DNA from: Amoebidium appalachense
Taxonomy: Eukaryota > Protista > Ichthyosporea
Assembly: GCA_963693365.1 (NCBI GenBank)
Contig: CAVNZM010000008.1
Coordinates: 8,684,818 to 8,748,817, forward strand
Direction of reading: 5' to 3'
DNA length: 64,000 nucleotides
Both the position numbers and the translations under genes were made by a program. Of this stretch, positions 26,365 to 34,970 are shown one piece after another. Every line of letters begins with the position of its first letter. Within the stretch, counting starts at the first letter, position 1. The notes beneath the pieces are model-generated. The model was not told the origin of the DNA and ran no database searches. It saw only the letters and a list, made by a program, of their open reading frames with translations.

Positions 26365-29300
26365 TCATAGGGTGGCTGGGGCGGTCTTGCTTCTGCGCAT
26401 GGGCACGTAATCGACCTTTGCGCTCTTGAGAAGCTCGATCGTGCCATTGAGGAGCATGAACGATCCCACCAGCTGCACGTGTGTACGTGTACGTGTGTGT
26501 GTTGTGTGTTGTGTGTTGTGTGTGATTGTGTGTGTGTGTACGGTTGTGTGTGTGTGTGTGTGTGTGTGTGTGTGTGTGAGTGTGTGGTGCGTGCAGGCAG
26601 GGGAGGGAGAGGGGGAGGGGGGGGAGGGGGGGGGAAGGAAGGGGGGAAGGGGGAAGAAAGAGTGAGCGAGAGGGGGGAGACGGGGGGAGGGGGGGGGGGG
26701 GGGGGGGGGGGGGGGGGGGGGGGGATGTATGCATTAGAGGGTTGGAAATATGGAGGAGACAACAAAGAGCAACAACAAAACGTCACAAAAGTGAGAAATC
26801 CAAAATCAAACAATTTAAGCGTGCAGGCAGAGGACACTTGAACAGAGCCCACCATCATCGGACAAAAAATAAACCTAACAAAAGGACGGGCATCATAACA
26901 TAAGCGCTAAAAGCTACGTACCTGTGTTGTGCGTATCAGCAGGCCCCGAGGAAAGATGGTGGCGATGGCGTAGGCCGCAGGCATCTGGAACCGCTTGGGC
27001 ACACCGGGCGGCACCCGGGGCAGCGATTTAAGCGCAAGATCTGATTGGAAGATAAATTTTAAAATCAGAAACGGATATTGGTGAATATGATGGTGGTTTG
27101 CATATGAAACAGCAAGAGGCATGAAGCTAGTGTGCCCTGAGCATTCATTGCCCCCCTCCTCCCCCCCCCCCCCCCCTTCTCTCTCTCTCTCCCCCCTCCC
27201 CTCCCCCCCTCTTCTTTCCTCTTCTCATCTACCCCTATTACAGCCTGCCCCCCCCTCCCCCCCTCCCCCCCCCCCCCCCCCCCCACACACACACACACAC
27301 AACCATACCCCATTCTCTAATTCCTACAGCAAGCATATGCAATACCTTCACTTTACACCCACCTATCATCCTTCTCATCTCTACATTCCTCCCTTCCCAA
27401 CCACCCCCCCCCCCCCCCCCCCCCCCCCGGCCCTTCACCACCACCACCACAACAGCTACCCTCCTAGCAGCTCCCCACCATTGCTGGTCCTCAAACACGC
27501 AAAAAACAAATATGCGCACAAGTATGATGATTCTTTGCACAGACACCTACCAGTACATGGATAAACACTTGTGTAGCACAACGCGCGCACGCGCGTGCAC
27601 ACACACACACACACACACACACACACACACACACACACACACACACACACACACACACACACACACACGCACGCACACACACACGCACACACACACACAC
27701 ACAGCAGCAGCAGGAGCAGCTACAAACAGACACTCAGGGGCACATGCGCAGACGGGCTGCACACACACGCAAAAAAAAAAAAAAAAAACTTCGAGAAAGA
27801 CAGTGTGACACACACACACACACACACACACACACACACACACACACACACACACGTACCCTGCATGAGCAGGTGGTAAGGTCTCTTTGGGTTGACCATC
27901 TTGAGGGTTGACAGGTTATGGGGCACGTGGGAGAGGTACCCCGACAGCACCCCCGCAATCATGCTGCCGGCCGCCGTGCGCAGCATCGGTGTCTGGATGA
28001 GTGGTCCCACTCGCTGTGTGTGTGCATGTATGCGTGTGTACGTGTGTGTGTGTGTACGTGTGTGTGTGTGTGTGTGTGTGTGTGTGTGTGTGTGTGTGTG
28101 TGTGTGTGTGGTCGGGGTGTGTGCGTGTTTGGTGTGTGTGTTACATGTGTGCATCTGCGTGCGATAGTAAGCCGATGTTTTCTAAATGTGCAAATTGTGT
28201 ATGTGCAAGATTTGGCCTGTGTGTATGTGAGTGTGAGTGTGAGTGTGAGTGTGAGTGTGAGTGTGTGTGTGTGTGTGTGTGTGTGTGTCTGTGTGTGTGT
28301 GTGAGTGTGAGAGTGAGTGAGTGTGTGTGTGTGTGTGTGTGTGTGTGTGTGTGTGTGTGTGTGTGTGTGTGTGTGTGTGTGTGTGTGTGTGTGTGTGTGT
28401 GTGTGTGTGTGTGTGTGTGTGTGTGTGTGTGTGTGTGTGTGTTGGGGGAAGGAAGTTTAGAACACATCACAGACTACAAAGAACACATTCACGAAAGGAC
28501 AACAAAATGCAGATTTGCAAAGCACACAGAAAGAGGAAGAGTTTTAAAGCAGCTCCCACCCACAGGGGGGCCCCAGGTCATTCAATGTGTCCGGATTTCT
28601 ACCCATTCACCTCGTATACTATGTCCCAAAGACACAATTTTCACTTCAACAGAGGGGGAGAGGGGGGGGGGGGGGGGGGGGGGAGAGAGAGAGGGGGGGG
28701 GGGGGGGGGGGGGGAGATGCGCAATAAAATACGAAGTGGACATAAACAACGAACGACACGATGCAGAGTGCATGGGTTGGTTGCTAAAGAGTACCCATAT
28801 TAGGTATAAACCCGCAAAATGCAAAAAATTGTCACGCACAGGCAATAATAGCACACAAAAACGGGCCAGTGAGAAAAGAAGAGACCTGGGCAGGCCAGAT
28901 CCTTTTTTTTTTCTTTTTTTTTTTGTGGCGAGGAAGGGGGGGGGGGGGGGGGGGGGAAGGGGAGAGAACAACACAAAAAAAGGAAAGCGCAAAACAGAAA
29001 CCATAGCACTTCGGGCAGAAGACCCTTTGTAGTGATGGTGCAGGTGGCGATGGTTGCAGAAAAAGGGGGGAGGTTTTTTTTTTTTTTTTTTTTTTTTGGG
29101 GGGGGGGGGGGGGGGGGGGGGGGGGGGGGGGGGGGGGGAGAGGGGGGGATAAGGGAAAGGATGGGGGGGGGGGGGGGAGGGGGGAGAGGGGGAGGGGGGA
29201 GGGGGGGGGGGGGGGGGGGAGAGAGAGAGAGAGAGAGAGAGAGAGAGTGATATGTCACCTCTTCGCAGTAGTCTGACAGCTGGTTTAGGCCCAGACCAAA

Positions 29301-32300: not shown

Positions 32301-34970
32301 ATGTATAGTGGTTGAGCGGTCGGTGGGTAGCCAGGGCATCCGGGAGGGGGGGCCGAAGGGGGGGGGGGGAAGGGGGGGGGAGGGGGGGGGGGGGGGGGGG
32401 GGGGGACACAAGAGGGGCAGGGTGCTTTTTTTTTTCTTTTTTGCACGCCGGGGACAAAATAGGTTCACCTCTGCCCTATTCTCAAGAAACATTTTAAGCC
32501 GTATACCTCAAAGGACAATCTCTCGTTCTTGGCCAGGTGGGCCCTGAGTGTTTCTGACGTCAGAACATAGGCACGTGCTGTCTTGGACCGGCACACGGCC
32601 CGTGCATATGCTGGCTCCTCCTGCAATGCAAAATATGGTAAATGGGTTGTATGGTGAAGGGGGGTAATAGGTGGGGGGAGGGGGGGGGGGGGGGGGGGGG
32701 GGGGCGGGATGGTGGAGGGGCAAGGGGGGGAAGGGGGAAGGGGGGGGGACACGGAGGGGGTAGGGTGCTGTGTGTGTTTAAGGGGGAAAGATTGAGGTGT
32801 GAGTATCTGTGTGTGTGTGTGGTGGTGTGGGGGGGAGGGGGGGAGGCGGACATGAAGAAAGGGGTTTAGTGAGTTCAAGCGGGGAGAAGGTGTATTTTTT
32901 GTTGGAGACACGCCATAGAGGAGGGGAGGGGGGGGAGGGGGGGAGGGGGGAGAAAGGGGGGGGGGGGGCTACCCACCCTCCCCCTCCCTTTCCCCACCGC
33001 CCGTCCCTATCCTCGCCCCCTCCTCCCCTCCCCATCCTTCTCCACACCATTCCATCCTTCCTCTTCCCCATCTACTCACATATGAAGCTCTACATTTCTG
33101 TTCGCATACTCTCCTTCCCTAACATGAGGCATCCTATCCCCGTCCATGATCTGCTCCTCCTCCGAATCGTTTTAATATTATAGGGTTACTTCTACACCAT
33201 TTTACTCTTTTTCTTTTCTTTTCCCGTACATATGCAATCTCTTTAAAAAGCACACACTATCCCCCTCCCCCACCCCCCACCCCCTTCCTTCTCACACTCC
33301 ACCCTGCTCCGCCACCCTCCCTTTCCGCTTTCTCTCTCTCTCTCTCTCTCTCTCTCTCCCCCCCCCTCTTCCTCCTCTCCTCCCCCTCCCAACCACCACC
33401 ACCCACCACCTCCTCCCTCCAACCCCTCCCTCCTCTGTCCCTACTACCACCCTCGCTTCCCCTCCTCCCCCCTTCCAACCCCTCCACCCCCACCTCCCCT
33501 GCGCGCCCCCCACGCCCCCGCCCCCTCCCCCCCCCCCCCTCCCCCCCTCCCAATTATGGGCTACCCCGTCTTAGCCAGAGCATAGCTCACACTAATCACA
33601 CCCCACGGTCAGTTTCGCCGCATGATTGAACTTGAAAAACACGAAAATTACAGGAAAGCTGGAACAGTGTTCTCTTTTCATAATTGCTCTGCCAACAATT
33701 TATTACGACACACTTCAAGTTGTGAATACAAATAAAGAGTTCTTTATACCGGTATGCACGCATAGACGACTGTGGACAATATGATGTTTATAAGAGAAGT
33801 AAAACCCCATTTGCCTATTTTACTCTCTCTTTATCTCCCCTTACCCCCCCCCCCCCCCCTCCTACCCTTCTCGGGCCCCTCCCCTCCCCCCCCCCCCCCC
33901 CCCCCTCCTCCCACTCTCCCCTCTCCCCTCCATCCCGCGAAAGAAAAGAGAAGAAAAGAAAAGAAAAGAAAAGGGGAAAAGGGGGGGGAAAAGGTGGGGG
34001 GAGGTGGGGGGAGAGGGGGGATCTACCTACTCTCCCCCTCCCCGTCTCCCTCCCTATCCCCCCCTCCCCCCCTCTCCCGGCCCTCCTCCCCCTTTCCCCC
34101 CCCCCCTCCCTCCCTGCCCCCCCCCCCCCCTCCCCTCCTTCCCCCCTTGCCGCGCCCCCTCCCCCCCCCTACCTCTCCCCCCGGGGCGGAGGTGGCAGGA
34201 AAAACACGGGAAAATAAAATCCGAAATTTGCACCTTGAGCACGTGCAGGGCGCCGAATGACCTTATGCCGTGCTGTGTGTAGAGGTTCACTGTGTGCACC
34301 GTGTGGTCCTTCATGGACCTCTCCCGCACAATCTCCCCGTCCACAATAAGGAAAATCGCATTCTGCGGCACCTCCTGTTCCACCAAAACGTCTCCTTTCC
34401 TGAAAAAGCAGGAATATGTATGGTAAATTGGCAGAATCCGTCTCTCGCTTACATTCGCCTATCTTCTGAGAATAGCTCGCTTAATTTTTTCCATGCTGCA
34501 AAGATCCAAACTCACTCCTCGAAGATGATTGGCCGAGACCGTGTGGATCTTCATAGGGTGACCTACACGAAAGGTGGGTCCACCTTGTCTTTCTTCCGCA
34601 AAATTCTGATTGCTCAAACAGCTTAGATACATTGTGGCCCTAAAAGCAGAAATTGCGATATAAATATAATTAAGAATATTGAACTCAGAAGGGCACATAA
34701 TGTGGCCCTAAGAGTAAATTCGTCCTAAAATAAAATCATTAAGAAAAAGTTTAAAACTCAAGAAAGCACATCTTCTTTAAGCACATACCTGTAGTCGACA
34801 ACCTTCATGTCCATGGCCAGATCCACAAGCACATCATCTGAGCAGTATTGAAACATGTGGCTGGCTTTCAGTGCCTCTATCCGATTGCGCAGTTCGGCGC
34901 CATCTCTCTCCGCCAGTTTTCGCCGCTCGGCGGAAAAGGACCTTGCTTGGGCAATACCAAACAAGCCCAT
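26365..34970 (-). CDS. 445-aa protein with a putative mitochondrial presequence, a cyclic-nucleotide-binding-fold domain and a degenerate mitochondrial carrier (SLC25)-like domain; 11 exons
   Basis: Exons 34970-34789, 34399-34234, 32620-32507, 32057-31979, 30942-30778, 30477-30374, 29928-29871, 29347-29259, 28013-27860, 27040-26922, 26472-26365. All introns are GT-AG and phase-compatible; total 1338 nt. CNB-like motifs: MFQYCSDDVL, YRKGDVLVEQ, IFLIVDGEI, SFGAL. Carrier-like motifs: PGVLMTPMSSILE, RWSRGLVPRTVREIIFG, AGVLSGYLSHVPHNLSTLK, FPRGLLIRTTQLVGSF. Confidence 0.85.

Follow-up and report, generated by a model that had tools for sequence, protein, structure and literature searches.

A spliced Amoebidium gene joins a cyclic-nucleotide-binding domain to a predicted SLC25-fold domain in a widespread protist family

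The minus strand of a 64,000-nucleotide (nt) stretch of the Amoebidium appalachense genome (contig CAVNZM010000008.1 of assembly GCA_963693365.1, positions 8,684,818–8,748,817; hereafter the window) carries, at 26365–34970, a gene for a 445-amino-acid (aa) protein in which a cyclic-nucleotide-binding (CNB) domain precedes a domain with the predicted six-helix fold of SLC25 mitochondrial carriers. The two halves are encoded on one transcript, and their two-domain layout is conserved in a family that is widespread in protists and apparently undescribed; the six carrier helices are predicted. Sequence comparison and structural modelling lead us to favour, tentatively, an organellar and probably mitochondrial CNB-fused carrier-fold protein that carries an anionic metabolite and is likely to be tuned by a ligand other than cyclic AMP (cAMP).

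One spliced transcript encodes both halves

An earlier reading of the letters of the window (the sequence-only reading) had proposed eleven small exons forming one 445-aa frame. This frame was rebuilt from 11 coding exons on the minus strand over exactly the proposed span, from an ATG at 34970 to a TGA ending at 26365, and the motifs quoted in that reading are present in the sequence. The coding stretches are short and set among poly-G/C and CA/GT runs, in which the 10 introns, of 300–1613 nt and every one with GT..AG ends, are rich. An in-frame TAG lies three codons 5′ of the ATG; together with an intron in the 5′ untranslated region (UTR), this stop fixes the start codon.

Exons 1–8 are contiguous in a single 1884-nt contig of run X2 with 0 differing letters, including the exon 4/5 junction, which is the boundary between the CNB and carrier halves, and a 1228-nt contig of run X1, from the same sample, covers exons 2–6. 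Four splice joints with CT..AC ends were found among the contigs of the two runs, which are taken to be RNA because these spliced joints are present. The matches in run X3 and other small-share runs were poly-C only and uninformative. The basis for exons 9–11 is a transcriptome protein and not reads: P0005 (445 aa; source label Amoebidium parasiticum), retrieved with exon 9, differs from the model at one residue only, with 444 of 445 identical. Rather than lying on separate transcripts, the CNB and carrier halves are a single, real, expressed spliced gene.

The carrier and sensor halves

The structure was modelled by AlphaFold2 with 113 sequences, and the carrier half was also folded alone. 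Alignment A1 (113 rows) consists of the 120 homologues listed for a carrier-half search, minus 11 short rows, plus four from a search with exon 9. The full-length model has a mean predicted local distance difference test score (pLDDT) of 92 and a predicted template modelling score (pTM) of 0.80; the carrier half alone reaches a pLDDT of 94.8. The carrier half contains six long helices (H1–H6; residues 184–210, 220–244, 253–279, 296–321, 328–359 and 404–427) and is asymmetric on the matrix side, where h12 is absent, h34 has four residues and two helices stand at h56.

A Foldseek search of the carrier half against the PDB returned SLC25 chains as all of its top nine matches (best E 2.3e-4, template modelling score 0.57). 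VIA-align over 48,161 chains placed carriers at Z 16.3, 15.8, 10.9 and 10.8 (root-mean-square deviation (rmsd) 3.8–4.5; 183–232 residues aligned), with the next non-carrier row at 6.9; the two best matches, a Tetrahymena complex IV chain (Z 16.3) and UCP1 (Z 15.8), cover 231/232 residues, and ADP/ATP carrier structures gave Z 10.8–14.2. The C-terminal half is thus predicted to adopt the SLC25 six-helix fold, as had been proposed. The predicted fold extends over the whole domain against the solved carriers (UCP1 8hbv/8g8w; ADP/ATP carriers 1okc, 2c3e, 4c9h and 6gci; Tetrahymena complex IV subunits 8b6h_DV and 7w5z_M2; Z 10.8–16.3), with which the family also shares proline kinks on H3 and H5, an [RK]G-type start of H4 and H6, and Arg-rich even helices. 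Unlike them, it has neither a PF00153 match nor charged gate motifs, its identity to them is 8–14%, its carrier domain measures about 250 aa against about 290, with h12 absent and h34 very short in the model, and a CNB domain is added at the N terminus.

In sequence the family stands isolated. Three homologous repeats are undetectable when the thirds of the domain are compared by HHalign (probability 0.8–1.9%, E 0.03–0.08), so that the three-repeat region described by the sequence-only reading is retained as a feature of the structural model and not of the sequence. Of the two profile searches proposed earlier, that for PF00027 gave a match above the cut-off, whereas that for PF00153 gave none for P0005 at E ≤ 1; PF00153 is also absent from the 25 families shown (of 26) for the 113 homologues at E ≤ 0.1. 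The carrier-half profile found two matches among PDB sequences, at E of about 1 and nothing meaningful. Against 1.84 billion representatives it gave 378 matches at E ≤ 0.001, and all 23 examined among the best 150 of the 378 were family members; the profile appears not to reach canonical carriers. Feature searches of the ESM Atlas lead to carrier clusters (0.92 and 0.89) and serve as leads only. Weak matches to PF18405 (SLC25_like) occur in 10 of the 113 members at E ≤ 0.1 (best E 5.1e-5), with no match for P0005 and a best bit score seen of 26.9, in a divergent member, against a Pfam cut-off of 34.5; the Legionella Lpg1137 family of this entry is likewise a carrier-like family reachable only by remote methods, as described in PMC5621508. 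Because the signature-motif and PF00153 profile tests failed, we class the family by its modelled structure, under the SLC25 fold, and do not count it among the canonical SLC25 members.

Conserved residues of the carrier half were counted in alignment A3 (110 rows). R227, K235, R299, R302, H351 and R407 occur in all 110 rows, as does Asp or Glu at 303. Between distant lineages, conservation reaches at least 90% at ten Arg/Lys and four Asp/Glu positions, and several of these are spaced i, i+3, i+4, i+7 on even helices. N202, N206, S272, E276, N279, H351, N352 and K357 are conserved at 89–100%. Helix offsets relate the even helices through the triplets Q223/R299/R407, T226/R302/Q410, R227/E303/I411 and Y230/F306/S414 (family consensus residues), giving as candidate contact points R227, R302-E303-F306 and Q410, with R407 one turn earlier. 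In the same register D315 takes the H4 position of the [YF][DE]xx[KR] cytoplasmic network, followed by E318 and not by K/R. In known carriers, R[DE] at contact point II is the mark of those that transport amino acids, and acidic side chains are bound by basic residues of contact point I (PMC6769469, PMC7611774). If the register holds, contact point II would be an R-E pair of the amino-acid class, common to the family and the aspartate/glutamate carriers, and R227 would suit an acidic side chain. The invariant helix charges argue for a substrate site over a pure scaffold, and the invariant Arg and Glu would speak for genuine transport, an acidic amino acid being a possible substrate.

The CNB half is recognized by PF00027 at residues 58–147 (32.1 bits against a cut-off of 27.5), in agreement with the fold first assigned to it, and PF00027 is found in 110 of the 113 aligned homologues. 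Its model, a barrel followed by a long C-helix at 149–169, superimposes on 2pqq with Z 15.9 (rmsd 3.5, 147 residues aligned), and its closest structural neighbours are CRP-family domains. In the phosphate-binding cassette, G110, A111, H113, P119 and A120 correspond to G199, E200, A202, P208 and R209 of protein kinase A (PKA); this register combines an alignment with GlxR and a published consensus (PMC2246266), positions 202 and 209 being taken from papers and the other PKA numbers counted from these. The ribose-binding Glu (E200, column 111) and the phosphate-binding Arg (R209, column 120) are each found in 0 of the 113 homologues, and since both are absent throughout, cAMP is an unlikely ligand. 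Column 113, by contrast with the alanine of PKA, is basic (H/R/K) in 111 of 113, and the pocket-lining positions 96 and 164 hold His in 105 and Arg or Lys in 112, respectively. The β2–β3 Gly (column 70), which co-evolves with the canonical cassette Arg (PMC2246266), is kept in 90 of 113; the window's own protein has Glu there.

A precedent is the trypanosome PKA described in PMC10959531, whose ligand is a nucleoside: the side chain at the 202-equivalent position fills the space of R209, and changes at these two cassette positions switched the ligand to nucleosides. The CNB fold and long C-helix are common to the family, the trypanosome PKA regulatory subunit, CooA, NtcA, PDZ-GEF, GlxR and 2pqq; as in other CNB domains with non-canonical cassettes, the phosphate-binding Arg is lost and the A202 equivalent changed. 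Unlike trypanosome PKA, the family also lacks the Glu, its A202 equivalent is basic instead of acidic, and its partner is a carrier. Judged from these residues, the pocket may have been rewired to bind an anion, R86, H96 and R164 being additional candidate residues. The near-invariant T-P-L-L-[EQ]-Q linker (172–177) joins two halves that differ in conservation, mean identity to the query being 29% in the CNB half (n = 110 homologues) and 57% in the carrier half (n = 112). The earlier description of the carrier as degenerate therefore understates the conservation of the domain as a whole.

An N-terminal sensor, a helical linker and a C-terminal carrier follow one another in the same order in SLC25A23/24/25 (ATP-Mg/Pi) and SLC25A12/13 (aspartate/glutamate), and the sensor is lost in some family members, as it is in SLC25A41 (PMC12410006). 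In those ligand-regulated carriers, unlike the family, the sensor consists of EF-hands and the signature motifs are kept; no sequence homology was detected between them and the family.

Family, cellular location and neighbouring features

The carrier-half search found 385 homologues of 244–779 aa, and PF00027 is present in 105 of the 120 listed (the best 120 of the 385), the fusion being the usual form. Holozoan members come from Amoebidium, Syssomonas, an acanthoecid, Salpingoeca and Monosiga; euglenozoan members from Euglena, a diplonemid and a kinetoplastid; and other named members from amoebozoans, oomycetes, diatoms, a brown alga, cryptophytes, red algae and Rhodelphis. Among the matches listed, at most 120 per search and mostly without a name, no animal, land-plant or Dikarya name occurs and one record is labelled as chytrid. 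No relative was confirmed by pattern scans, sensitive to close relatives only, of prokaryote genomes, where 14 candidate stretches came up, and of viral contigs (51); viral carriers resemble the carrier half by fold only (8–15% identity). A tree of 110 rows obtained by a quick search, with support of at least 95 on 27 of its 107 inner branches, resolves lineage groups and not the backbone; it neither places the window's protein nor tells transfer apart from descent from the last common ancestor.

In two members, P0168 and P0175, the CNB domain is interrupted by an ACT-like insert (25.6 and 18.2 bits, below the cut-off of 27), a feature that fits metabolite sensing; the tree groups the two at support 99. 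The similar uncharacterised proteins that the sequence-only reading expected in other protists are thus confirmed as homologues, and searches of the main text of open-licence papers found no description of the CNB–carrier fusion or its members. The main text of the Andalucia and Diplonema mitoproteome papers does not mention cyclic nucleotides (cNMP), and automated annotation has touched the family, one CNB-less member bearing the UniRef label ‘Mitochondrial carrier protein’. A different fusion, of TMEM65 with a cNMP-binding domain, is filed under unknown function in the Diplonema mitoproteome supplement (PMC12699882), as the only cNMP fusion among the rows listed.

A cleavable presequence, suggested earlier from the N terminus of the window's protein, was rejected for the family as a whole: the N-terminal extension lacks conservation, 84 of the 113 aligned homologues having 24 residues or fewer before the M39 column (20 of those 84 are truncated at the N terminus), and the published TargetP result for the Euglena homologue is negative. 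Presequences are usually absent from carriers (PMC7050145). The Euglena homologue, EG_transcript_7927 (P0112; 47% identity over 403 aa), is listed in the mitochondrial proteome of PMC7403612 with 14 unique peptides, as TargetP negative and under ‘No annotation’; its mitochondria/whole-cell ratio is 1.79 (q 0.010 against whole cells, q 0.033 against chloroplasts). A mitochondrial association is likely, and weaker than for ordinary carriers.

The features of the gene are collected in Table 1.

Table 1. Features of the CNB–carrier gene, in window positions
Feature	Position	Strand	Content or basis
Whole coding span, 445 aa	26365..34970	-	CNB ~24–170, linker T-P-L-L-[EQ]-Q 172–177, SLC25-fold domain (predicted) ~181–429
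Exon 1, aa 1–60: N-terminal extension and first CNB helices	34789..34970	-	coordinates and transcript contig
Exon 2, aa 61–116: CNB β-barrel and first half of phosphate-binding cassette (G110, A111, H113)	34234..34399	-	coordinates and transcript contig
Exon 3, aa 117–154: second cassette half (P119, A120) and hinge helix	32507..32620	-	coordinates and transcript contig
Exon 4, aa 155–180: long C-helix (L159, R164) and conserved linker	31979..32057	-	coordinates and transcript contig
Exon 5, aa 181–235: H1 and most of H2 (E194, R198, N202, N206, Q223, R227, K235); h12 absent in model	30778..30942	-	coordinates, transcript contig, model, alignment
Exon 6, aa 236–270: H2 end, loop, H3 to P270	30374..30477	-	coordinates, transcript contig, model
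Exon 7, aa 271–289: H3 end (S272, E276, N279) and short matrix loop	29871..29928	-	coordinates, transcript contig, alignment
Exon 8, aa 290–319: H4 with R299, R302-E303, F306, D315	29259..29347	-	coordinates, transcript contig, alignment
Exon 9, aa 320–370: H5 with H348, P350, H351, K357	27860..28013	-	coordinates, transcriptome protein, alignment
Exon 10, aa 371–410: two matrix-side helices and H6 start (R407, Q410)	26922..27040	-	coordinates, transcriptome protein, model
Exon 11, aa 411–445 and stop: remaining H6 and C-terminal tail	26365..26472	-	coordinates, transcriptome protein
5′ untranslated part of ATG exon, in-frame stop three codons before ATG	34971..35056	-	transcript contigs
5′ UTR intron, GT..AG	35057..35638	-	loose ends of X1 and X2 contigs map from 35644 onward
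Upstream non-coding exon, upper end approximate	35639..35817	-	174-letter loose end of X2 contig

The single difference from P0005 is at residue 434, in the poorly conserved tail encoded by exon 11, where the window has Pro and P0005 has Leu; it may be an allele, a strain difference or a sequencing error. Low-depth unspliced X1 contigs lie inside intron 2 (33558–33833, depth 22) and across intron 1 (34373–34817, depth 12), against a depth of 379–747 for the spliced contigs, and represent pre-mRNA, DNA or intron retention. Upstream of the first non-coding exon, at 35894–35929, inspection by eye and without a chance control showed two oppositely oriented CCAAT-type boxes.

Elsewhere in the window, a 362-aa stop-to-stop frame on the plus strand (50155–51243) matches porphobilinogen deaminase (PF01379 E 9e-40, PF03900 E 2e-17) and forms a long uninterrupted coding stretch within an otherwise intron-dense region. 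A plus-strand frame at 3915–4607 matches the C2H2 zinc finger weakly, short of the cut-off (E 3.8e-4), and the other 23 of the 25 window frames scanned have no Pfam match.

Proposed mechanism and alternatives

SLC25 N termini face the intermembrane space, so the CNB domain would meet cytosolic small molecules, as the EF-hand domain of the ATP-Mg/Pi carriers does. Its pocket lacks the Glu that binds ribose and the Arg that binds phosphate, and would nevertheless accommodate an anion, either a carboxylate or a phosphorylated metabolite, since His, Arg or Lys occupies the position overlapping the lost Arg and R86, H96 and R164 are conserved. The C-helix and the T-P-L-L-[EQ]-Q linker would relay the signal to H1. 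The matrix gate would shut through polar contacts (N202/N206, S272/E276/N279 and H351/N352/K357) and not through the classical salt-bridge ring. R302-E303 on H4 and R227 on H2 would fit the amino-acid class, and the best single guess at the substrate is an acidic amino acid, for example aspartate or glutamate. The fullest version of this proposal is somewhat doubtful: it would make the family an ancient eukaryotic carrier lineage that the majority of protist supergroups have kept and that animals, land plants and most fungi have apparently lost. Its members would transport an acidic metabolite, would need no classical salt-bridge gate and would be switched when a metabolite or an unknown second messenger binds in the rewired CNB pocket.

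Several observations weigh against a ligand-tuned transporter. The erosion of both signatures, reported from the letters of the window, holds across the family for the gate as for the cassette: the motif Pro is kept in 110 of 110 rows on H3 and 97 of 110 on H5, with D/E and K/R of the motif at 0 of 110 in both helices; Pro is not among the five commonest residues at positions 199–210 of H1; and Px[DE]xx[KR] occurs anywhere in the carrier domain of only 3 of 110 homologues. Single substitutions at positions of this type mostly inactivate known carriers (PMC9104175). The contact-point register was set by helix offsets, not by residue-level structural alignment, and it puts Q410 at contact point III instead of the near-universal Arg. 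H2, H4 and H5 are weakly hydrophobic (family mean 0.21–0.40), and in five of the six helices the conserved and hydrophobic faces are on opposite sides, with only one of six conservation moments and none of six hydrophobic moments reaching p < 0.05. Four annotated carriers in the table that lists the Euglena homologue at 1.79 have ratios of 3.65, 4.02, 5.17 and 44.8 (PMC7403612; a fifth annotated-carrier row was omitted because its identifiers disagreed). Finally, a clade with support 98 that includes Salpingoeca and Monosiga (P0169, P0171, P0182, P0187 and P0190) has no CNB domain, mostly carrying a low-complexity N-terminal extension in its place, so the carrier half can do without it; the acanthoecid choanoflagellate protein retains the CNB.

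Some of these observations would be accommodated by a non-transporting SLC25-fold scaffold, insertase or complex subunit, comparable to MTCH1/2, SLC25A46 or the Tetrahymena complex IV chains, in which the CNB domain would serve for sensing or docking. MTCH1, MTCH2 and SLC25A46, as described in PMC7611774, keep the prolines, have lost the network charges and have a shortened h34. The family likewise keeps the H3 and H5 prolines without the charges, and h12 is absent and h34 four residues long in our model, although such shared losses do not establish kinship. The best structural matches are chains of Tetrahymena complex IV (role described in PMC10227065), and low helix hydrophobicity with weak mitochondrial enrichment would fit an outer-membrane site. 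UCP1, however, ties with the complex IV chain (Z 15.8 and 16.3, within 1), and the family is set apart from the MTCH1, MTCH2 and SLC25A46 descriptions by its sensor domain and its many invariant in-helix charges, the ten Arg/Lys and four Asp/Glu positions forming a substrate-site pattern. These charged residues in membrane helices also weaken the MTCH/SLC25A46-like membrane protein offered by the sequence-only reading, and we regard a scaffold as unlikely. A ligand-regulated carrier of the peroxisome, glycosome or another endomembrane would agree with the absence of a conserved presequence, with the lower enrichment of the Euglena homologue relative to the four annotated carriers and with the peroxisomal location of the SLC25 member PMP34 (PMC7611774). 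Set against this, carriers usually have no presequence (PMC7050145) and the Euglena homologue is significantly higher in mitochondria than in whole cells or chloroplasts, which makes a non-mitochondrial site very improbable.

Two further alternatives concern the sensor of the favoured ligand-tuned carrier. Gating by cAMP or cGMP, bound at lower affinity with basic residue 113 replacing the lost Arg, would draw on the spatial overlap of this position with R209, on the intact CNB fold (PF00027 in nearly all aligned homologues, and the close match to 2pqq) and on the retention at column 70 of the Gly that co-evolves with the canonical Arg. It is quite unlikely, given that both canonical anchors are absent from all 113 homologues, that the tested families with non-canonical cassettes have ligands of another kind (PMC2246266, PMC10959531) and that the window's protein has Glu, not Gly, at column 70. 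Alternatively, the carrier may be constitutive and the CNB domain, binding nothing, may serve stability, C-helix dimerization or spacing. Its far lower conservation, its absence from the choanoflagellate clade and several members outside it, and the CRP-family identity of its nearest folds all suit such a role, and the aspartate/glutamate carriers dimerize through an N-terminal domain of disputed regulatory role (PMC12410006). Yet H96, basic 113 and R/K164 are conspicuous within a domain that varies elsewhere, and the linker is nearly invariant, so that an inert CNB domain seems distinctly improbable.

The direct regulators of SLC25 carriers described in reviews are calcium-binding EF-hands (PMC12410006). 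If the ligand-tuned reading is true, the family would add a second ligand-gated type to the calcium-gated mitochondrial carriers and would bring CNB domains a new ligand chemistry, a pocket with a swapped basic residue extending the short list of CNB domains that bind ligands other than cyclic nucleotides. SLC25 carriers are thought to need their Px[DE]xx[KR] gates, and a family at 57% identity among distant eukaryotes without the gate charges would test how the fold closes. Because the family escapes PF00153, carrier inventories built on that profile miss it, as the ‘No annotation’ entry of the Euglena member illustrates. The existence of natural members with the sensor, without it and with an ACT-expanded form of it makes regulation directly testable.

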